From NCBI GenBank assembly GCA_964589775.1, contig CAZPUN010000008.1, positions 1 to 25,550 on the forward strand: a stretch of DNA of 25,550 nt, given 5' to 3'. Numbering within the stretch: the first letter of the stretch is position 1; every line of letters starts with the position of its first letter. The position numbers and the translations under genes are program-made. Of the stretch, positions 564-25,224 are shown one piece after another. The notes under the pieces were generated by a model. The model was not told the origin of the DNA and searched no databases. It worked only from the letters and a program-made list of their open reading frames with translations. This stretch comes from an uncultured archaeon (lineage in GTDB: Archaea > Asgardarchaeota > Thorarchaeia > Thorarchaeales > CAZPUN01).

Positions 564-1454
564 TCATTTTAACATCTTCTTCATTCGTAGTATGATCCTG
601 TTCGATATTTCTTTTACAGCCTCTGTAAAATCGCTAAATTCAAGCACGTAAACGCCAGCTTTTCTTGCTAGTTCTACAATATAATCTTGAATTTTCCTTG
701 CAATTTGAAATTCCTTTTCACGAATGCTCAGATCCTTTGATACTGTTTTTAGCTCGCCTCTAATGCTTTTTCCAATAAACATAGATTTGTGTAGTTCGTA
801 TGGTGGATGTACAATATATTCGATTATATTATCCTTATGTTCTATTTCTCCAAGTTCTCCTGGAATAATATGGACACCCTCAAGAATTGCTGTCGTTCCT
901 TCTGAAATTATTCTTTCGATATATGATCTTACACTTCCCATTACTATTTTCGATTGTGCGACATATCCTTGGATTACTGGATCTACATCTGGCTCTAATT
1001 TCTTTAGATATTTGTAAGCTTGATATGTATGACAGTATAACTCAGGAACGTTTTCCTTGCTCAATTGTGCTCTAAGTACTTGTCGAAGCGTGTCCGTACC
1101 CATAATTCTGGTGCTGGTCAATCTATATGCCATTGCAGCAGTTACCATTGATTTTCCTGTTCCACTTGCGCCTCCCAATATTAGAATTATTGGCTCTGAA
1201 ATTTTATCTGTTGCCCTAGCATTTTTGAAATCCACAATTGTTTGATATGCGTCTTTAGTTTGTCCAGATAAACTATCTAAAATATAATTATCTACCTGCC
1301 TAAATGACTTTATTTCATTTGTCTTGATCAATATGTCAAGATCTGCTAAAATTAATTCGATATCTTTGGGTATCACACCTGCCAGTAATAAAGAACCTCG
1401 AATTACATCAGGAATATATAACATGTCGTGACCATTTAATTTCAGAGTTGGCAT
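564..1454 (-). CDS. pgk2: 2-phosphoglycerate kinase family protein with degenerate N-terminal ATP-cone-like region
   Basis: Walker [10 protein letters not shown], followed by [19 protein letters not shown] and [14 protein letters not shown]-type motifs typical of archaeal 2PGK. GGTGG RBS. Confidence 0.8.
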
Positions 1455-3674: not shown

Positions 3675-4970
3675 TCAGTTTTTAAAATGTTCTATCATTT
3701 CAGATAAGATCTCTTTTACATTAATACTTGGTAGTCCATAGGAGATAATATAGATTTTTCCAAGATTTAGCATAAATATATGTCCCTTGTTTTCGGGATT
3801 TGTAGCAATTATTGCAGATTTATCGCTATATGACAAGTTATATGGAACATTCTGAACAAAATACACAGATTCCCTATTATTAAATGACATAACAAGGGTT
3901 ATACCATCCATGTTAAGGTTCCAATTCTGTGTTTGCCATGCCACAGAACCATTCTTTTTCAATACCGCCCACGCAAGTACTTCAGGATGCTTTTGCATAA
4001 ACTCTCCGACTTTCTGCGATACTAGATTAAAATCAATTGATCCATCAACACTTACAAGAGATGTCTCAATTACAACTCCAGATTTGGGAACTTGATCATT
4101 GAGAATCTTTTTGACTCTTTTCGCAATTTCAATTAGTTGCATTGCAAATCTCTTAAGTAGTCTATTTTTAGCTGGGTCACGCTCTTTCTCAACGAGATCA
4201 AAGGCCCATTTAGCGATTTCTTTGAACAAAATAAACGATTTCTCGTAATTATTAATTTCAAATTCTGCCTTTGCAGAAGCATATGCAGCTGCCATATCTG
4301 ATGGAATGATTCCCAATATTTCATCTGAAATTTTTGGAATTCGAAACTTAGGCTCGATATCTTTGGGTGCAGATTCTGGGGCTGTAATTTCTTCTTCTAC
4401 GATTTTTGATACACTTTTTGATACGCTTTCTGTAATAGATTCTTCAGAATGAGGTTCTTCCAGAGCTGGAAGCGAACTTATACTTTCATCAGGAATTGGA
4501 GACGCCATACTAGACGCACTAAGTGCAGCAACAGATTCTGTAGCTTGCTGTGTTTCATGTATTTTCTCCAAAGATATTGGTGAGGATGTTCCATGAGATT
4601 CTATAGTCGAAGTCTTTTCAGATTCCATCCTTTTTCTTAATTCACGAGCATATATTTCTTTTACAGCCTCTCCGATAATTCGTGCCTGAGAGACAAATTC
4701 TTTTAAGCGTTCAAAGAGTACTTCCTGAATTGATTCATCATCGATCTCTGAGATTATGTCATGTATATCGCTTGCGATTGCAATAGCTTGTAATGTGAAT
4801 TCTTTGAACTTTCGTATGTTATTTTGTTCCAAGTTATCTATTCCACGCTGGAAGGCAGAATTCATAATATTTACTTTATACTGGACAAGTTTTCGAAGTT
4901 TAAAGTCCCCTAAGTCGGTTATCTCCATCGTATGTTTTCGAGCCAATTTAATTACGCGTTCGTAAGACAG
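3675..4970 (-). CDS. Multidomain protein: MIT-like bundle, Ser/Glu/Pro-rich linker, second MIT-like bundle, C-terminal Asgard-type profilin domain
   Basis: The C-terminal ~120 aa (LAWAVLKKNGSVAWQTQNWNL...VQNVPY...IIATNPENKGHIF) carry the QTxNW and TN-x3-KGH motifs of Asgard profilins. aa ~217-284 (AYASAKAEFEINNYEKSFILFKEIAKWAFDLVEKERDPAKNRLLKRFAMQLIEIAKRVK) follow the MIT pattern. The ORF track starts at TTG 4946; an in-frame CTG at 4970 lies 7 nt after GGGAGG. Confidence 0.75.
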   Translation of the reverse strand: MSYERVIKLARKHTMEITDLGDFKLRKLVQYKVNIMNSAFQRGIDNLEQNNIRKFKEFTLQAIAIASDIHDIISEIDDESIQEVLFERLKEFVSQARIIGEAVKEIYARELRKRMESEKTSTIESHGTSSPISLEKIHETQQATESVAALSASSMASPIPDESISSLPALEEPHSEESITESVSKSVSKIVEEEITAPESAPKDIEPKFRIPKISDEILGIIPSDMAAAYASAKAEFEINNYEKSFILFKEIAKWAFDLVEKERDPAKNRLLKRFAMQLIEIAKRVKKILNDQVPKSGVVIETSLVSVDGSIDFNLVSQKVGEFMQKHPEVLAWAVLKKNGSVAWQTQNWNLNMDGITLVMSFNNRESVYFVQNVPYNLSYSDKSAIIATNPENKGHIFMLNLGKIYIISYGLPSINVKEILSEMIEHFKN

Positions 4971-6005: not shown

Positions 6006-6896
6006 TTATTTTCTCTGCATTTGTAGTTCAAAAGCTCGAACAACATTTTTCATGAGCATAGCAATTGTCATAGGGCCTACTCCGCCGGGAACGGGAGTTA
6101 TACATTTTACTTTACCTTTTAGATTTTCAAAATCCGCATCACCATACGGAGTAGCTACATCAATTACAATAGCATCTTCGCGAACCATGTCTTCAGTGAT
6201 ATAGAACGGGTCGTTCTCGGATCTTCTTCTGCCAATAGCAGTGACAAGTATATCTGCCTGCTTTGTGAAATGCTTAAGATCTTTGGTTTTTGAATGGCAC
6301 ATTGTGACAGTAGCATTTCGATTTAACATCAAGAACAAAAGCGGCTTACCCACAATCATAGAACGATTAATTATGACAACATGCTTACCTTGAATTTCAA
6401 TATTTGATGCTTCTAATAATGTAATAATTCCTTTTGGAGTAGCAGCTACGAGATCTTCTTTTCCAATTACAAGATTATATACATTCATAGGATGAAATCC
6501 ATCAACGTCCTTTATTGGATCGATTGCCTGAATTACTTTGTTTTCATCAATATGCTTGGGCAGGGGTAGTTGAACAAGAATTCCAGTGACATTTTCATCC
6601 GCATTAAGGTCTGATATGATTTTAAGGAGCTCATCTTCAGATATTGTTGCAGGGAGTTCAATGTTCTTGGATTCAACACCGATTTTTGCACAGGATTTAT
6701 GTTTCATACGAACATACATCTTTGAGCCTTCATCATCGCCTACGAGAACTGTTGCAAGGTTTGGTACTCGCCCGTATTTTTCCTTTAATTGCTCAACTTG
6801 AACTTTTAATTCCTTGAGATAGCGATTTCGTAATCTTCTACCCTTCATCACGCCATCTTCACAAATAGGTTTCAATTCGGTTTCTGACACTTTCAT
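6006..6896 (-). CDS. folD: Bifunctional methylenetetrahydrofolate dehydrogenase/cyclohydrolase
   Basis: YVRMK (YxxxK), GILVQLPLP, KDVDGFHP, NRSMIVGKP and ITPVPGGVGPMTIAML motifs. GGAGGT RBS. Confidence 0.97.
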   Translation of the reverse strand: MKVSETELKPICEDGVMKGRRLRNRYLKELKVQVEQLKEKYGRVPNLATVLVGDDEGSKMYVRMKHKSCAKIGVESKNIELPATISEDELLKIISDLNADENVTGILVQLPLPKHIDENKVIQAIDPIKDVDGFHPMNVYNLVIGKEDLVAATPKGIITLLEASNIEIQGKHVVIINRSMIVGKPLLFLMLNRNATVTMCHSKTKDLKHFTKQADILVTAIGRRRSENDPFYITEDMVREDAIVIDVATPYGDADFENLKGKVKCITPVPGGVGPMTIAMLMKNVVRAFELQMQRK

Positions 6897-6935
6897 ACCT
6901 CCATAAAATAAAAGAAAAAGGTGAGAAATTCCTCT

Positions 6936-8528
6936 TTAGAATACACCCTGAATGTTTCCGTCTTCATCAATATACATTCGCCATGCTGCTGGCTCCTTTG
7001 GAAGTCCGGGAATCAATTGGATATCGCCCATGATTGGTACTACGAAACCAGCACCCGCGCTGTAGAAAATATCACGAACAGTTACGGTAAAGCCTTTTGG
7101 ACGACCTAATAGTTTGGGATTATCTGATAGAGATAGTTGTGTCTTCGATACACATATTGGGACATTCTTACCGCCACGCTTCTCAATTGAGCGAATCTTT
7201 GCCTTAACTCCGGAAGCAAATTCTACACCATCAGCACCGTAGATAGTTTTGGCAACTTTCTCAATTTTTGTTGCAATATCGTCTTCAAGGTCGTATGTGT
7301 ACTTGAATTCATATGGCTTCTCTACGGCTTCGAGAACTTTATTCGCAAGGTCAATTCCGCCTTCGCCACCTTTCTCAAATACCTCAGAAATTGCAGCAAG
7401 AGCACCCTTGCTTTCAGCATACTTTGCAACAGCATCGAGGTCTTCCTTAGTATCATCTGGGAATTTGTTTACTGCTACTACTACAGGAGCACCAAAGCTC
7501 TTAATAATGTCAATGGCAGCGCCAAGATTTTCCAATCCTGCCTGAAGATCTCCATTGCCATGATGCTTGATTGCACGTACAGAACCAACAACTACAACGG
7601 CATCGGGCTTATAGCCACCAACACGAGTGACAATATTCATGAATTTCTCAGCACCAAGATCTGCACCAAAGCCGCTTTCGGTCACCACGTAATCTGCAAG
7701 TCTCAAGGCTAAGTCGGTTGCAACAACACTATTTGTACCATGTGCAATATTCGCAAAAGGTCCCGCATGTACAAAGGCAGGATAACCTTCAGTGGTTTGT
7801 ACAAGGTTGGGTTTTAATGCATCTTTCAAGAGCACAGTCATTGCACCATCTGCCTTAAGATCACCAGCAGTAATAACCTTCTTATGGCCTCGAGCAACTT
7901 CAATTTTCTTAATTCGTTCTCGTAGATCATTATAGTCCTTTGAGAGAGCCAAAATTGCCATAATCTCAGATGCTGCAGTAATTACAAATCCATCTTCACG
8001 TGGATAACCATTTCCACGACCGCCAAGCGCAATAACAATTTGACGAAGAGCACGGTCGTTTTGATCAATAGCTCTCTTCCATGAAATGCGTCTCACATCA
8101 ATTCCAAGTTCGTTTCCATGATGAACGTGAGCATCAATCATTGCAGCAAGGAGATCATGTGCAGAAGTAACAGCATGCATATCACCAGTAAAGTGAAGAT
8201 TAATATCTTCAGAAGGTAAAACTCGGGACTTTCCACCACCAGTTGCGCCACCTTTAACACCAAAAACAGGACCAAGAGATGGCTCACGCAATGCAACAAT
8301 GGTCTTTTTGTTCAATTTATTTAATGCTTGTGATAAACCAATTGAAGTTGTAGTTTTTCCTTCACCATATTTTGTTGGTGTCATAGCGGTAACAAGAATT
8401 AGTTTGGCTTTTCTATCGCCAAGTTTCTTTCTAATGTTTAAATCAATTTTAGCTTTATACTTTCCATAAAGTTCAAGATATTCATCGTCAATACCGATTG
8501 ACTTTGCAATTTCAGAGATATGTTTCAT
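6936..8528 (-). CDS. fhs: Formate--tetrahydrofolate ligase
   Basis: TPTKYGEGKTT, ALREPSLGPVFGVKGGATGGG, INLHFTGDMHA, HAGPFANIAHG and TESGFGADLGAEKF motifs. ATG 8528 is preferred over TTG 8543. Confidence 0.98.
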   Translation of the reverse strand: MKHISEIAKSIGIDDEYLELYGKYKAKIDLNIRKKLGDRKAKLILVTAMTPTKYGEGKTTTSIGLSQALNKLNKKTIVALREPSLGPVFGVKGGATGGGKSRVLPSEDINLHFTGDMHAVTSAHDLLAAMIDAHVHHGNELGIDVRRISWKRAIDQNDRALRQIVIALGGRGNGYPREDGFVITAASEIMAILALSKDYNDLRERIKKIEVARGHKKVITAGDLKADGAMTVLLKDALKPNLVQTTEGYPAFVHAGPFANIAHGTNSVVATDLALRLADYVVTESGFGADLGAEKFMNIVTRVGGYKPDAVVVVGSVRAIKHHGNGDLQAGLENLGAAIDIIKSFGAPVVVAVNKFPDDTKEDLDAVAKYAESKGALAAISEVFEKGGEGGIDLANKVLEAVEKPYEFKYTYDLEDDIATKIEKVAKTIYGADGVEFASGVKAKIRSIEKRGGKNVPICVSKTQLSLSDNPKLLGRPKGFTVTVRDIFYSAGAGFVVPIMGDIQLIPGLPKEPAAWRMYIDEDGNIQGVF

Positions 8529-8763
8529 AGCATTTCCCACCAATCATTTGTTTGCACGATACAAAAACGTTCACACATTCAAAAGCTTTTCCTTTGTATC
8601 GGAATTTTTCTCCCAGAACGCAAACATTTTTTCATATATTTTTCTCTACCCCCTAGGTCCCCTACTATGAATAAATACTAGATACAAAAATTTAATACTT
8701 CATCAATTTTTTAAGTGCAAAAGAGCATGTTTTGTACCAGTCAAATAAAGGAAGGTAATCCAT

Positions 8764-10953
8764 TTGCCAAAGGATATTGAGATTGATGATGATATAATAG
8801 TCCGTGTTTCAAAGGACTTGGGCATACGAACGAGCCAAATAAAAAGCACAATCCGGCTTTTATTGAATGGAAATACTGTACCCTTTGTAGCGAGATATCG
8901 AAAAGAGGTCACCGGAAGCTTAGATGAAGAACAGATCCGAAATGTAAAGGCAATATACACAAAGTATGTCAATTTAGAGACTCGTAGAACACAAGTTATT
9001 GAATCAATTGAAGAACAAGGGAAAATGACGGAGGAACTACGGAAGGCATTATTAGAAGCAGAAACACTGCAAGAGATCGAAGACCTGTACTTGCCATATA
9101 AACCCAAGCGAAGAACACGAGCAACTATTGCGAAAGAAAAAGGACTTGAACCTTTGGCATTGAAAATGTTAGAATTACCTATAAAGGGCGATAAATTAGA
9201 AATTGCTTCAAAATTCATTAATCCTGAAAAGGGAGTCAATAATGTAGAAGAAGCACTTGATGGAGCTAAAGACATAATAGCTGAAATGGTTTCTGAAAAT
9301 GCGGAATATCGAAAATTTGTTCGAAGTACATATATGGATGATGGTGTCATAACTACAAAAGCAACTGACAATGCTGCTGAAACAGTCTATGATATGTATT
9401 ATGATTTTGAAATTGATGTTCGGAAAATTAAACCACATCAAATATTGGCGATAAATCGTGGAGAAAAGGAAGGAGTATTAAAAGTAGCTATCGATGTAGA
9501 TCACGACTGGATCATTATGAAATTACAAAAAGACATATTGAAGAATCCAAGAACGATCTTTGTAAATGAAATAAAAGACGCCACGAAAGATGGATACAAG
9601 CGATTGTTAGCACCTTCTATTGAACGAGAAGTGAGAAGTTATCTCACAGAAATTGCAGAATCTCATGCGATAAAAGTATTCGCCGAGAATTTGAAAAACC
9701 TATTATTGCAGCCACCTATCCGAAATGTAACTGTTATGGGCATAGACCCAGGCTTCAGAACAGGTTGTAAAGTCGCTGTTGTCGATCCTACTGGAAAATT
9801 ATTAGATACTGCTACAATTTATCCACACCCCCCTCATAACAAAGATATGGAAAGCATCTACATTCTGGAGGAATTAATAAAAAAGCATAAGGTTGATGTA
9901 ATTGCAATCGGAAATGGAACAGCATCTAGAGAAACAGAAGCTCTTGTATCCCAAATTACAAAAGAACGAGAAGATGTAAAATATCTGATTGTGAGTGAAG
10001 CCGGGGCATCGGTATATTCCGCATCAAAAATTGCTAGAGAAGAATTTCCAGACTTGGACGTTAGCATGAGAGGTGCAATTTCAATAGCTCGAAGAGTTTT
10101 GGACCCACTTGCTGAACTTGTAAAAATCGATCCAAAATCAATTGGTGTCGGATTGTATCAACATGATGTTGATCAGACAAAATTAAAAGAAACTCTAGAT
10201 GCAGTGGTCGAAGACTGTGTAAACTTAGTAGGCGTGAATTTGAATACGGCAAGCTGGGCCTTATTGAGATACGTAAGTGGAATTGGCCCGTCCGTAGCTA
10301 AAAATATAGAAAAATACCGGAGTGAAAATGGAAAATTCACAAATAGAAAACAGCTATTGAAAGTTAAAGGCTTAGGTAAAAATACTTTTACTCAGGCTGC
10401 GGGATTCTTAAGAATTCCAGATGGCGATAACCCATTGGATAATACACCGGTTCATCCGGAATCCTATAAAATCGCTGAAAAAATTCTATCAAAAATCGGA
10501 TATAAAAAAGAAGATTTACGGGATAAAGAAAAGCTAAACAAAATTCGAGCAAAATTAGCAAAGCTTAACCCACAACAAATCGCAAAAGAGTTAGATGCAG
10601 GAGAACCAACCGTCAAAGACATTATTGATGCCCTTCAAAAACCGGGAAGAGATCCGCGAGATGAACTACCAAAACCAATTTTGCGACAAGATGTACTGAA
10701 GATAGAAGATTTGAAACCGGGAATGCGACTTAAGGGTGTCGTTCGAAATGTTGTTGATTTTGGAGCGTTTGTGGATATTGGTGTAAAGCACGATGGCTTA
10801 GTACACATCTCAGAAATGAAAGATGGATATGTACGTGATCCTCAAAAGATCGTTTCAGTCGGTGATGTAATTACAGTTGAAGTGATCGATGTTGATGTAA
10901 AAAGAGAGAGAATAGCACTCAGTATGAAAAGAGTAAAGGAAGAAGAACTCTAA
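8764..10953 (+). CDS. tex: Tex family RNA-binding transcriptional accessory protein (YqgF, HhH and S1 domains)
   Basis: GNTVPFVARYRKEVTG, EDLYLPYKPKRRTRA, GIDPGFRTGCK, VSEAGASVYSAS, DPKSIGVGLYQHDV and the C-terminal S1 motif FGAFVDIGVKHDGLVHISE. Confidence 0.97.
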   Translation: MPKDIEIDDDIIVRVSKDLGIRTSQIKSTIRLLLNGNTVPFVARYRKEVTGSLDEEQIRNVKAIYTKYVNLETRRTQVIESIEEQGKMTEELRKALLEAETLQEIEDLYLPYKPKRRTRATIAKEKGLEPLALKMLELPIKGDKLEIASKFINPEKGVNNVEEALDGAKDIIAEMVSENAEYRKFVRSTYMDDGVITTKATDNAAETVYDMYYDFEIDVRKIKPHQILAINRGEKEGVLKVAIDVDHDWIIMKLQKDILKNPRTIFVNEIKDATKDGYKRLLAPSIEREVRSYLTEIAESHAIKVFAENLKNLLLQPPIRNVTVMGIDPGFRTGCKVAVVDPTGKLLDTATIYPHPPHNKDMESIYILEELIKKHKVDVIAIGNGTASRETEALVSQITKEREDVKYLIVSEAGASVYSASKIAREEFPDLDVSMRGAISIARRVLDPLAELVKIDPKSIGVGLYQHDVDQTKLKETLDAVVEDCVNLVGVNLNTASWALLRYVSGIGPSVAKNIEKYRSENGKFTNRKQLLKVKGLGKNTFTQAAGFLRIPDGDNPLDNTPVHPESYKIAEKILSKIGYKKEDLRDKEKLNKIRAKLAKLNPQQIAKELDAGEPTVKDIIDALQKPGRDPRDELPKPILRQDVLKIEDLKPGMRLKGVVRNVVDFGAFVDIGVKHDGLVHISEMKDGYVRDPQKIVSVGDVITVEVIDVDVKRERIALSMKRVKEEEL

Positions 10954-12869: not shown

Positions 12870-14414
12870 TTAGTCACCAAGTTTTTCATTTACGATTTTC
12901 ATAACTTCGTCCTTTAGAGCTTTGCCTTTTTCCATAAGGTCATTCAATTCTTCGCGAACCTTTTTAACAAACTCTTCATCTTCAATTGAAGTCAGGTTAA
13001 TTCGGACATTCAGTGCTGCCCCTTCCATTGCACCAAACGTAGAAATTGCAGCTACTCCAGCGTCAGTTATTGCGTTTACATTGCCATTCATCGCGGCGAT
13101 TTTCGCTTCTTGAAGCGCTTCATAGGAGAGCCGTACGGTATCCATAGGTACTTCAACAGCTTTCTTTAGGGCTTCTTGCATGGCTTTGTGGCGAGCTGCT
13201 TTTTCTTCCTCAGTTTTCTTTGGCATACGTCGAGCAGCCATATATTCATCAAACGCTTCGGAATCCTTGACAACAATGTCCATTAGTTTACCGCGATAAA
13301 GTTCGGTTTTCTTTCTTGTTTCGATCATCAATTCATTTACTGCAGCATATTTTCTACGACCGATTGTAAGACCACAAACCATACTAGCTAATGCAGCTCC
13401 TAACGCGCCTAAGACCGCAGAAACAGAACCGCCACCAGGTGCGGGTGTATTCTTTGCCACTTCATCTGCAAATTCAACAAGACTTAGTTCTACCAAGGAT
13501 CGCTCTTCAGGACTTTGTCCAGTTACATATAAATCGAGAAGACTTCGACGACTAATTCCTGTTGATTGTAAATAAAATTCTGCAGTTTGAATAAGAGCAT
13601 CCAGCGGCATTAGACCTATCAACTCAGTCTCAGTAACAGTAACACCATAGCGAGCTGCTTCCATTTTTACCATTTCAAGCACACGATATATGGGCGTCTT
13701 CTTATAATTCAAGAGGTTCATAGATACTTGAGCAGTGTTTTTATCTTCGAGATATAGTCCAATTGCTTGAACATTTTTGAGCCCACCGGAACGTTCTCGA
13801 ACGGCTTTTGCAATTTTTCTTGCAATCTTCTTGTTGGGCGTATTAAGATTAGCATTAAATGCAATCAAGAAGAAACGTGCACCAGTTGCCGTAGCACCAG
13901 CTGTAGGATGAATCTTCTTTGGGCCATAATCCGGATCCTTCTCCGGTTTTACACCAATTGTCTCTCTTAGTCCTTCAAATTCACCCTCACGTATATTTCC
14001 TAAGATTCGGCGCTCAGGTCTAGTCGCAGATTCTGCGTATAGATATACAGGGATCTGATGCTTCTCTGAAAATTCTTTTGCAAATCGCTTTGATAGTTCA
14101 ATACACTCCCCCATTGTAACACCTTGTAGAGGAATAAATGGTACGACATCTACAGCACCCATTCGTGGATGTTCACCTTCGTGGTGATTTAGATCAATTA
14201 ACTCAACAGCTTTCTCGCCACCCGCTAATGCAGCCTTCAGTACAGCTTCGGGCTCCCCGATGAAAGTTACTACCATACGATTATGGCTCTCATCAGATTC
14301 CACATCTAGAACCTTTACACCTTCTACAGAAGAAATAGCATCAACAATAGCACGCATAACTTCAGGGCGTCTGCCCTCGGAAAAGTTCGGAACGCACTCT
14401 ACTAATTTCATCAT
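12870..14414 (-). CDS. ftcD: Bifunctional glutamate formimidoyltransferase / formimidoyl-THF cyclodeaminase
   Basis: KLVECVPNFSEGR, HNRMVVT, GEHPRMGAVDVVPFIP and HPTAGATATGAR (FT domain), plus TPAPGGGSVSA and ALNVRINL (CD domain). GAGGAG RBS before ATG 14414/14411. Confidence 0.97.
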   Translation of the reverse strand: MMKLVECVPNFSEGRRPEVMRAIVDAISSVEGVKVLDVESDESHNRMVVTFIGEPEAVLKAALAGGEKAVELIDLNHHEGEHPRMGAVDVVPFIPLQGVTMGECIELSKRFAKEFSEKHQIPVYLYAESATRPERRILGNIREGEFEGLRETIGVKPEKDPDYGPKKIHPTAGATATGARFFLIAFNANLNTPNKKIARKIAKAVRERSGGLKNVQAIGLYLEDKNTAQVSMNLLNYKKTPIYRVLEMVKMEAARYGVTVTETELIGLMPLDALIQTAEFYLQSTGISRRSLLDLYVTGQSPEERSLVELSLVEFADEVAKNTPAPGGGSVSAVLGALGAALASMVCGLTIGRRKYAAVNELMIETRKKTELYRGKLMDIVVKDSEAFDEYMAARRMPKKTEEEKAARHKAMQEALKKAVEVPMDTVRLSYEALQEAKIAAMNGNVNAITDAGVAAISTFGAMEGAALNVRINLTSIEDEEFVKKVREELNDLMEKGKALKDEVMKIVNEKLGD

Positions 14415-14954
14415 GGGTCTCCTCATAGAATATTTTGGAAATCGCCATGCCAAAGAAGTAAAGAAATAGTCATAAAGGTTTCCATTAATTACCTTGAAAA
14501 CCGATAACTCCCTATATTGAAATGCGAGTGCGCGAATGGGCTACTTTCGATAACCATTTACTCACCGTGCCCAGAGGTGATACAATAAGTTCTAATCCAC
14601 TTCATAAATAGAATCTGACATTATCCTCTTAGTAATAATATCCAATTCACATCTCTCTGATATCATAGAAGGTCTTAGTTACTCTGCTACTTTTACAACT
14701 AATGTGTCTCTCCTTATTTTGGAATAAAAAGTATATTATTTATCTATTTAATAATCATAGTCTGGAGATGTTAATTGCATAGCTTATAATACGTACAGCA
14801 TTCATACTCTATTCTGCCTTTCATAATTATATTATTTCACTATTTTAAAAATTTTTATATATTACAAAAATTTATTATTAATTTTTAATAAAATTGGAGA
14901 TAGGTTTATATGTGTGGATTGTACATGAATATGAGTAGATAGGTCAGGAAATGA

Positions 14955-17005: not shown

Positions 17006-17707
17006 TTATGTCCCTTTTCTATTTTTCAAGTCTTCTAAAAGCATGTCGATTAATGTTTTGTAGTATTGTTCGTAGAAGCCATCTTCTGTTATATATACAA
17101 TGCGGTCTCTGACTTGTATGTAGTTGTTTACAAGAAGTCTAATTGCTTCTGGATAGATGAAATGTTCTCTTTTTAGATTTCGCTTAGTAAATTCATCACG
17201 TGTATCTTCTGGAAATACCGGTGTAAAGGCTTGCAGTATTACAGGACCATGATCTACATATTCATCTACGAAATGTACGGTTGCTCCGGAAACTTTAACT
17301 CCATAGTCTATCGCCTGTTGCTGTGCATCAACCCCGGGAAATGCAGGTAATATTGCCGGATGAATATTCAAGATTCGCATTGACCATTTTTTAACGAATT
17401 CTTTTGAGAGTAATCTCATATAGCCTGCGAGAATTACATAATCTATACTATAGTTTTCTAATAGTTCCATGCAAGCTCTGTCATAGTTTACTCTAGATGT
17501 TTCCTTATCATCAGTACGATATTTCTTTGGGCTTAGAAATACAGCGTCGATATCATGTTTTTTCGCGCGTTCAAGTGCATATGCATTTTTTTTGTTACTG
17601 AGTACAAGTTCAATAGATGCATTATCTATGTATCCTGAATTTATTTTATCGATTATTGATTGAAGGTTCGTTCCGCTTCCAGATGCGAATACTGCAAGCC
17701 GTTTCAC
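17006..17707 (-). CDS. purN: Phosphoribosylglycinamide formyltransferase (10-formyl-THF dependent)
   Basis: ASGSGTNLQ, LAGYMRLL, LNIHPAILPAFPG and GATVHFVDEYVDHGPVI motifs. Confidence 0.97.
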   Translation of the reverse strand: MKRLAVFASGSGTNLQSIIDKINSGYIDNASIELVLSNKKNAYALERAKKHDIDAVFLSPKKYRTDDKETSRVNYDRACMELLENYSIDYVILAGYMRLLSKEFVKKWSMRILNIHPAILPAFPGVDAQQQAIDYGVKVSGATVHFVDEYVDHGPVILQAFTPVFPEDTRDEFTKRNLKREHFIYPEAIRLLVNNYIQVRDRIVYITEDGFYEQYYKTLIDMLLEDLKNRKGT

Positions 17708-24456: not shown

Positions 24457-25224
24457 ATGCGAGGGATGGATATCTTGAAAGAGTTAGAATCACCATTTGC
24501 AGCGGTCTCGGTACCTGAAGCGGAGGTCAAAGAAGTAAAAAAACTCGACGAACCCGTCATGTTCTTGGACATTCTAAACAGTGATAAAGACCCAATGATA
24601 TTCTGGGAAAAAACTATTGATGAGGCGAAATTTCTCATCAATCGTGGAATGAATAATGAGGCCGCTGAATTGTTAAAACAAATTGGGCGTCAAATATATA
24701 CATATATGCAGAAAAAAGGATTGGACGATGACCAGAAAAAGACCCTTACAGAGAAAGCCTTCATGCTTGTAGACATTGTCAAATATCTTAAGGGTATCTC
24801 CGACGAAGCAAAGCCAATTCCAAAATTCGCAGACCTTGAAGAAGATGACGAAATAAGTTCGTATTCACGTGCAAGTATTCTTGAGTCCTTACTGGAGCGA
24901 ATATCTAAAAATTACGGGCTTCAATATGTTGCTTTAGTTGGAATTGCTGGGCGTATACTTTACAATAATACCGAATTAAAAATAATTGACGATTCGTTGT
25001 ATTTACAATCTGTCTTTGAATTTAAAACTGAAAAAATAAAGATCGGAAATGACGTGTATAAATTGCTTGACCAAAGTTCTAAAGGACTCGTCTTTGAATC
25101 TAATGAACGTTATCTTTTCTTAGTTCCAACCGGACGTGGGCGCTTATTACTTGCAATATCTTCAAAAGATATAGATTATAATTTGTTTTTGTTATCTGTT
25201 TATGAGGAACTTAGATTTATTTAA
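24457..25224 (+). CDS. MIT-like helical bundle fused to a divergent profilin-fold domain
   Basis: aa ~48-113 show a three-helix MIT-like pattern (IDEAKFLINRGMNNEAAELLKQIG...DDDQKKTLTEKAFMLVDIVKYLK). aa ~140-255 follow the profilin element order (YVALVGIAGRILY...KIKIGNDVYKLL...LVFE...YLFLVP...LLLAIS...helix). Confidence 0.55.
   Translation: MRGMDILKELESPFAAVSVPEAEVKEVKKLDEPVMFLDILNSDKDPMIFWEKTIDEAKFLINRGMNNEAAELLKQIGRQIYTYMQKKGLDDDQKKTLTEKAFMLVDIVKYLKGISDEAKPIPKFADLEEDDEISSYSRASILESLLERISKNYGLQYVALVGIAGRILYNNTELKIIDDSLYLQSVFEFKTEKIKIGNDVYKLLDQSSKGLVFESNERYLFLVPTGRGRLLLAISSKDIDYNLFLLSVYEELRFI

Follow-up and report, generated by a model that had tools for sequence, protein, structure and literature searches.

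Fusion of an Asgard profilin with a predicted MIT domain in an uncultured Thorarchaeial lineage: a possible link between ESCRT-III and actin

In this study, we analyzed a 25,550-nucleotide stretch of DNA (hereafter, the window) from an uncultured archaeon of the order Thorarchaeales (contig CAZPUN010000008.1) and characterized a gene on its minus strand (3675..4928) whose product joins an Asgard-type profilin to a probable MIT domain. The source is a hydrothermal-vent metagenome-assembled genome of 2.16 Mb in 64 contigs, which is 97% complete. Four parts follow one another from the N- to the C-terminus of the predicted protein, namely a three-helix bundle, a disordered linker, a second three-helix bundle and the profilin domain, and our confidence in this architecture, that is, in the identities and the order of its domains, is high. 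We propose that the protein may couple ESCRT-III to actin; for the full coupling mechanism, which is drawn by analogy with other MIT proteins, we estimate a probability of roughly 40%.

The minus-strand frame at 3675-4946 is open over 423 codons, counting from a TTG at 4946. Translation likely starts at the ATG at 4928, with the in-frame TTG less probable, because the resulting 417 residues (followed by a stop codon at 3675-3677) equal the database entry for this protein, P0002, and because its orthologue, P0003, starts from the corresponding Met. The reading frame predicted in an initial annotation of this DNA is real, and the motifs listed there (AVLKKNGSVAWQTQNW, VQNVPY and IATNPENKGH) were all found in the translation. 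Its segment coordinates were also borne out by an AlphaFold2 (AF2) model, which puts helices and strands at the same positions. This model of the 417-residue protein was built on a 13-sequence alignment and has a mean predicted local distance difference test score (pLDDT) of 80, with three confident domains at residues 12-111, 210-279 and 300-417. Identity between P0002 and P0003 was 54% in the first bundle, 31% in the linker, 60% in the second bundle (MIT), 84% in the hinge that follows it and 71% in the profilin domain. The values of 71% and 60%, compared with 31% in the linker, indicate that the profilin and MIT modules are under constraint.

The C-terminal domain (residues 300-417; 3678..4031, minus strand) is securely an Asgard-type profilin, as detected by phmmer, Foldseek and exhaustive structural alignment (VIA). 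Its strongest phmmer match in PDB was Odin profilin (5zza_P, E 2.5e-8), followed at E 2e-7 by Thor profilin (7pbh) and, more weakly, by Loki profilins (E ~0.01); a free profilin encoded in the same genome matched the domain at E 1.2e-13. Odin and Loki profilins were also on top in Foldseek (5zza_P, E 1e-9, TM-score 0.84). With VIA, the highest values were those of Odin profilin (Z 17.7, root-mean-square deviation (rmsd) 1.5 Å, 113/119) and Loki profilin-1 (Z 17.1), and eukaryotic profilins scored Z ~13. The AF2 pLDDT is ~88-96 across the domain. In an alignment of 13 profilin domains, fused and free, residues Q332, T333, W336 and G382 are invariant, and N335 and Y363 are nearly so. The 118 C-terminal residues are thus like known Asgard profilins (Odin 5zza, Loki profilin-1 and profilin-2 5yed/5zzb, Thor 7pbh and Heimdall 6yrr) in sequence, in fold and in the WQTxNW and GH signatures. 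The Odin structure 5zza is a complex with actin, and the sequence and model suggest that the fused domain most likely binds monomeric actin as well.

Roadblock/LC7 and longin-type proteins have the same broad alpha-beta-alpha sandwich and were the next-best matches to the profilin domain (Z ~11-12). A Roadblock/LC7 identity was rejected, since Roadblock chains reached only Z 11.7-12.3, as opposed to 17.1-17.7 for Asgard profilins, and showed no sequence similarity to the domain. The original assignment to profilins therefore survives the Roadblock, longin and GAF alternatives raised with it. Pfam hmmscan of the protein and its pieces detected neither profilin nor MIT, and returned only sub-threshold noise (Band_7, PAH and TPR_20). 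In the 'Thor profilin' cluster of the ESM Atlas, PF00235 was present on just 35% of members.

The second bundle (residues 200-280; 4089..4331, minus strand) consists of helices 210-224, 228-248 and 252-279 (AF2 pLDDT 89-97), and both fold and family-profile matches support its identification as an MIT domain. For residues 207-284, VIA detected the MIT domains of katanin p60 (5lb7_B, Z 11.3, rmsd 1.9 Å, 78/78), ULK3 (Z 10.1), NRBF2 (Z 9.4) and VPS4A (Z 9.4, 70/71), as well as a chitin-synthase chain (8k52_A, residues 91-168, Z 9.2), all in the range below ~13 in which VIA values can be generic for helical bundles. When a profile of this bundle was built from four fusion proteins and compared with PDB, the nine best matches were all MIT domains, with MITD1 at E 5.5e-4, VPS4A/B at 0.007-0.02 and SKD1 also among the top; katanin, yeast Vps4, Sulfolobus CdvC and calpain-7 were found among lower matches. 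The Pfam MIT model (PF04212) recognized P0004, a paralogue described below, with a score of 26.4 bits (E 7.3e-6); the score for P0006, the orthologue of P0004, was 25.3 bits. A six-frame search of the genome with this model reached 30.2 bits, just above the curated cut-off of 30 bits. Bundle 2 of the target and its orthologue was in turn aligned by hhalign with the MIT segments of the paralogues (86% probability, E 4.9e-6). The bundle that had been called convincing on first reading (nt 4095-4298) is accordingly the one with sequence-level MIT support.

The N-terminal bundle (residues 12-111; 4596..4895, minus strand) is MIT-like in shape only. It contains helices 12-34, 38-60 and 65-111 (AF2 pLDDT ~87-96), the third of which has 47 residues and extends past the bundle in the model. 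Its MIT matches in VIA (Z 9.2-9.9), including Sulfolobus CdvC (2w2u, Z 9.9, rmsd 1.8, 74/74) and yeast Vps4 (Z 9.7), tie with those to a plectin spectrin repeat (Z 10.2) and to Vti1b Habc (Z 10.0). No MIT signal was found for this bundle in sequence searches, including hhalign against 25 Vps4 MIT domains of the order (P 0.12). The hhalign comparison of the two bundles gave 17% probability, and an ESM Atlas look-up returned generic helical bundles. Because of this tie and the lack of sequence signal, a tandem MIT is not established: of the "tandem MIT / profilin" proposed in the initial annotation, the profilin and the second MIT domain stand, and the N-terminal segment (nt 4656-4874), already graded there as the weaker, reads as a generic three-helix bundle. 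Vta1/LIP5, ULK3 and calpain-7, which have tandem MIT domains, likewise contain two three-helix bundles per chain. However, their bundles are packed together, whereas those of the fusion protein are ~88 disordered residues apart and the first shows no MIT sequence signal.

The linker between the bundles (residues 112-199; 4332..4595, minus strand) is a disordered, acidic and Ser/Glu/Pro-rich segment of ~88 residues, of which 52% are S, T, E or P, with a net charge of -9 and pLDDT below 50 over residues 134-188. An IHETQQ island in this otherwise variable region (residues 123-128; 4545..4562, minus strand) is invariant between P0002 and P0003 and lies in a weak predicted helix (120-138), and it may be considered a candidate linear motif. 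Just upstream of it, a P-x-x-hydrophobic-x-E/K pattern recurs in the paralogue lineage. The hinge between MIT and profilin domains (residues 281-299; 4032..4088, minus strand) comprises 19 residues with the invariant run SGVVIETSLVSVDG, a candidate binding or strand-addition motif. Although disordered in the AF2 model, the hinge is more similar to that of the orthologue than any folded domain is.

Additional members of this family were identified. The orthologue P0003 (416 aa, 57% identity) is from an independent assembly (GCA_053985755.1), in which the neighboring genes for FTHFS, FolD, dodecin and an ATP-cone protein are kept. Beyond the target, the genome of the window codes for one free profilin of 125 aa and two further proteins of the MIT-profilin plan. 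One of these, P0004 (436-447 aa; contig C34, 6732-8075), has the same four parts and a full-length collinear BLASTP alignment to the target (E 7e-17); its linker is Lys/Pro/Glu-rich instead of Ser/Glu-rich, and its MIT segment is the one recognized by Pfam. Its orthologue, P0006, was found on five independent contigs from different assemblies and runs.

The third gene of this plan is located in the window itself (24466..25224, plus strand) and codes for a 252-residue protein with an MIT-like bundle, an acidic linker and a profilin-fold domain (AF2 pLDDT 72). In VIA, its C-terminus was closest to Loki profilin-1 (Z 15.4) and Odin profilin (Z 15.1), ahead of Roadblock (Z ~12), and its N-terminal bundle was closest to the MIT domains of calpain-7 (Z 8.9) and VPS4A (Z 8.4). 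The WQTxNW and GH signatures are absent from this protein, with the profilin fold kept. When aligned with the fusion family by hhalign, it was collinear from the MIT segment through the hinge to the profilin (E 4.4e-5 at 69% probability). These three segments thus form the conserved core of the family, to which the target and one paralogue add the N-terminal bundle and the long linker. Orthologues of the 252-residue protein were also detected (P0020, 79%; P0021, 61%), and a shape search of the ESM Atlas with its model matched only the profilin-fold half. In a tree of 16 profilin domains, branching of the fused forms was without resolution, which neither favors nor opposes a single origin.

Within the genomes and proteins searched, the MIT-profilin fusion was confined to one narrow lineage. 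In an exhaustive hidden Markov model search of 1.84 billion representative proteins, fused forms were limited to one orthologue and one paralogue cluster; none of the nine remaining matches, all of them profilins, had an MIT-like N-terminal part (six were ~125 aa long, one had an N-terminal extension of ~50 residues and two had C-terminal extensions). When proteins of 229-730 aa were searched with a word index for the profilin region, only the target and its orthologue were returned. The non-profilin part was not found in 40 genomes of the same order, save for one marginal match (E 0.003), which lies in the low-complexity linker and whose frame is interrupted by two stops. The set searched contained no representative of the family other than the genome of the window. 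Among 185,579 species genomes, a related-locus search yielded pattern matches but confirmed no relative. Given that sequence searches missed the 252-residue paralogue, divergent fusions could be present elsewhere. In addition, profilin-like folds were observed in the ESM Atlas as parts of larger Asgard proteins (hypothetical ones 200 and 214 aa long, and a cluster of 412 aa with a TrmB N-terminal domain), suggesting that multidomain profilin-fold proteins may be more numerous than the literature suggests. In a search of sequencing runs, the sole full match was a hydrothermal-vent metagenome, which may be the source sample; no RNA run matched, and the search is uninformative on expression.

We found no published description of an MIT-profilin fusion, including in a survey of ESCRT (PMC10936438), structural surveys of eukaryotic signature proteins (PMC12962969, PMC13734099) and work on Lokiactin motility (PMC13716822). 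The only additions to profilins described in the papers examined are N-terminal extensions of ~20 residues in ~5% of Asgard profilins (PMC8410842). Characterized Asgard profilins are stand-alone proteins of ~120-150 aa whose N-terminal extensions do not exceed ~20 residues (PMC8410842), whereas in the fusion 299 residues, which include two helical bundles, precede the profilin domain. The domain architecture thus appears undescribed, as had been suspected from the sequence. Since profilin and MIT are both well known, it is classed as a new combination of known modules.

Candidate partners of the protein are encoded in the same genome. We detected a single actin gene (C35 13472-14575, 439 bits to PF00022) and a single MIT-containing Vps4, along with three ESCRT-III genes of the Snf7 family, the C-termini of which are acidic amphipathic helices that resemble MIM tails. 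The ESCRT-III genes are at C23 71254-71736, C23 71884-72330 and C20 59943-60449, and Vps4 is at C64 34183-34782. The tail of the Vps2-like ESCRT-III contains a MIM1-like LExxIKxLExEL motif, which is kept across 24 genomes of the order, and a MIM2-like FPEIP segment was also noted among the ESCRT-III tails. Vps4 and the ESCRT-III pair are on separate contigs here, and in relatives Vps4 adjoins the Vps2-like gene. Three Snf7-family genes were found in this genome versus exactly two in each of 20 relatives of the same order; co-occurrence of the extra gene with the MIT-profilin family is anecdotal, being a single observation in one lineage. Asgard Vps4 MIT domains have been reported to bind Asgard ESCRT-III by isothermal titration calorimetry (PMC7240154). 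Co-folding of the MIT domain with the last 47 residues of the Vps2-like ESCRT-III (24-sequence alignment) scored 0.01 relative to a mark of 0.32, was run without controls and provides no answer for or against binding.

We propose that the MIT-profilin protein is a modular adaptor. Its C-terminal profilin would bind actin monomers, and its MIT domain would dock on the C-terminal MIM-like helices of the organism's own ESCRT-III subunits. The flexible acidic linker of ~88 residues would provide the connection to bundle 1, which may serve as a second site of binding or self-association. In this way, the MIT domain could concentrate profilin, and hence polymerization-competent actin monomers, at membrane ESCRT-III assemblies; equally, the protein could bring ESCRT-III to actin-rich sites. 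Such a coupling is suggested by the identities and order of the domains, by an architecture kept in the orthologue and paralogues, and by a genome that encodes actin, ESCRT-III and Vps4.

Known MIT proteins provide the closest parallels. ESCRT-III tails are the ligands of most characterized MIT domains, and the MIT domains of MITD1, VPS4A and VPS4B are ESCRT-III binders. In MITD1, Vps4, spastin, katanin p60, ULK3 and calpain-7, an MIT bundle of ~80 residues is likewise located N-terminal to an effector via a flexible linker. The nearest of these are MITD1 and VPS4A/B by sequence and katanin p60 and ULK3 by fold. Their effector is an ATPase, kinase, protease or phospholipase-D-like domain, whereas in the fusion it is a profilin; they differ also in that the MIT sequence signal is weak in the target itself, whose ESCRT-III binding is only putative. 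Spastin is a microtubule-severing ATPase that reaches ESCRT-III through its MIT domain, and the parallel proposed here has actin replacing microtubules. By analogy with these proteins, tethering of profilin-actin to ESCRT-III is a reasonable proposal, in which both binding activities and their coupling are inferred.

Several observations weigh against this proposal. The Pfam MIT model had no match in P0002 or P0003 at E<=5, and a two-sequence profile of the target and its orthologue reached MITD1 at E 0.34-0.86, behind designed coiled coils; since the target's own segment is not recognized by Pfam, the MIT call depends on the paralogues and on the fold. Bundle 2 was not detectably near the Vps4 MIT domains of the order (hhalign against 25 domains, correct register, P 0.05), and because of this distance a ligand shared with Vps4 is not guaranteed. 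In the structure of the best fold match, katanin p60, the MIT domain is accompanied by p80 and an ASPM peptide, and some MIT domains bind partners outside ESCRT. On the actin side, the fused profilin domains differ from other Asgard profilins in their long branches (~1.9 changes per site versus 0.4-1.3 in free profilins), and their function may therefore have shifted. Finally, no ESCRT or actin gene is present among the neighbors of the gene (MutS, Ssb, a membrane protein, an ATP-cone protein, dodecin, FolD and FTHFS), and the neighborhood gave no functional lead.

Some of these points are shared by the main alternative, in which the protein is an actin regulator that acts apart from ESCRT-III, and the MIT domain and bundle 1 serve another partner, self-association or autoinhibition. 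Such a protein would be a multivalent or regulated profilin, e.g., an oligomeric scaffold that clusters profilin-actin. There is precedent for regulation of this kind in that short N-terminal extensions modulate Heimdall and Thor profilins (PMC8410842). The strong profilin call, the katanin p60 fold match with its partners other than ESCRT-III, and the distance from the Vps4 MIT domains of the order are all consistent with it, as are the protruding 47-residue helix of bundle 1 and the conserved short motifs of linker and hinge, which could be intramolecular ligands. However, the nearest MIT domains by sequence are those of ESCRT-III binders (MITD1, VPS4A and VPS4B), ESCRT-III tails are the usual ligands of MIT domains, and the gene context hints at no alternative partner. 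We regard this alternative as possible but rather unlikely.

It is less probable still that the protein is an ESCRT-III accessory factor whose profilin fold has ceased to bind actin and now serves as a lipid or protein platform, as do Roadblock and longin folds. This would account for the long branches of the fused profilin domains and for the loss of WQTxNW and GH, with retention of the fold, in the 252-residue paralogue; Roadblock/Ragulator folds are the next-best structural matches (Z ~12), and Asgard profilins have been reported to bind phosphatidylinositol 4,5-bisphosphate (PIP2) (PMC8410842). On the other hand, the target keeps the columns that are invariant in profilins, its match to the actin-bound Odin profilin is clearly above those to Roadblock in both sequence and fold (E 2.5e-8, Z 17.7), and the profilin domain, at 71%, is counted as the most conserved module between the orthologues. 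That the fusion is an artefact of chimeric assembly or of read-through of separate genes is hardly credible, even for a metagenome-assembled genome in 64 contigs, since the frame is single and uninterrupted, the same architecture and neighbors recur in the independent assembly containing P0003, five more contigs, which stem from different assemblies and runs, bear a collinear paralogue, and conservation follows the domains.

With regard to its immediate surroundings, the MIT-profilin gene looks monocistronic, because the AT-rich region upstream has no long open reading frames up to a divergent ATP-cone gene and the membrane-protein gene downstream is convergent. Elsewhere in the window, a cluster of one-carbon/folate enzymes (6006-8543, 12870-14453 and 17006-17707, all on the minus strand) includes FolD, formate-tetrahydrofolate ligase, formiminotransferase-cyclodeaminase and a formyltransferase, with a dodecin gene nearby. 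A 729-residue Tex/Spt6-like protein with Tex_N, YqgF, HHH and S1 domains is encoded at 8764-10953 (plus strand) of this archaeal genome. In addition, a 296-residue protein (564-1454, minus strand) showed a weak sub-threshold match to Torsin (24 bits, cut-off 27) and may be AAA+-like.

Asgard archaea have an actin system under the control of profilins and gelsolins together with a eukaryote-like ESCRT system, and whether and how actin and ESCRT cooperate in membrane shaping is a live question for the origin of eukaryotes. A profilin fused to a module for ESCRT-III recognition would be a direct genomic hint of such cooperation. A broader scenario, in which a small family of MIT-profilin adaptors arose in this vent Asgard lineage (three paralogues in one 2.2-Mb genome, along with an extra ESCRT-III) and physically couples ESCRT-III remodeling to delivery of actin monomers, is speculative, and we consider it doubtful at present. 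Because the fusion was seen in one narrow lineage, its reach is limited, and it more likely illustrates how these modules can be combined than how the ancestor of eukaryotes behaved. The system nevertheless offers a simple set for experiments, consisting of one protein, one actin and three ESCRT-III tails. If the broader scenario is true, the MIT-profilin proteins would be the first dedicated archaeal linker of ESCRT and actin known, and the actin-side counterpart of the link between ESCRT and microtubules that is provided by spastin.

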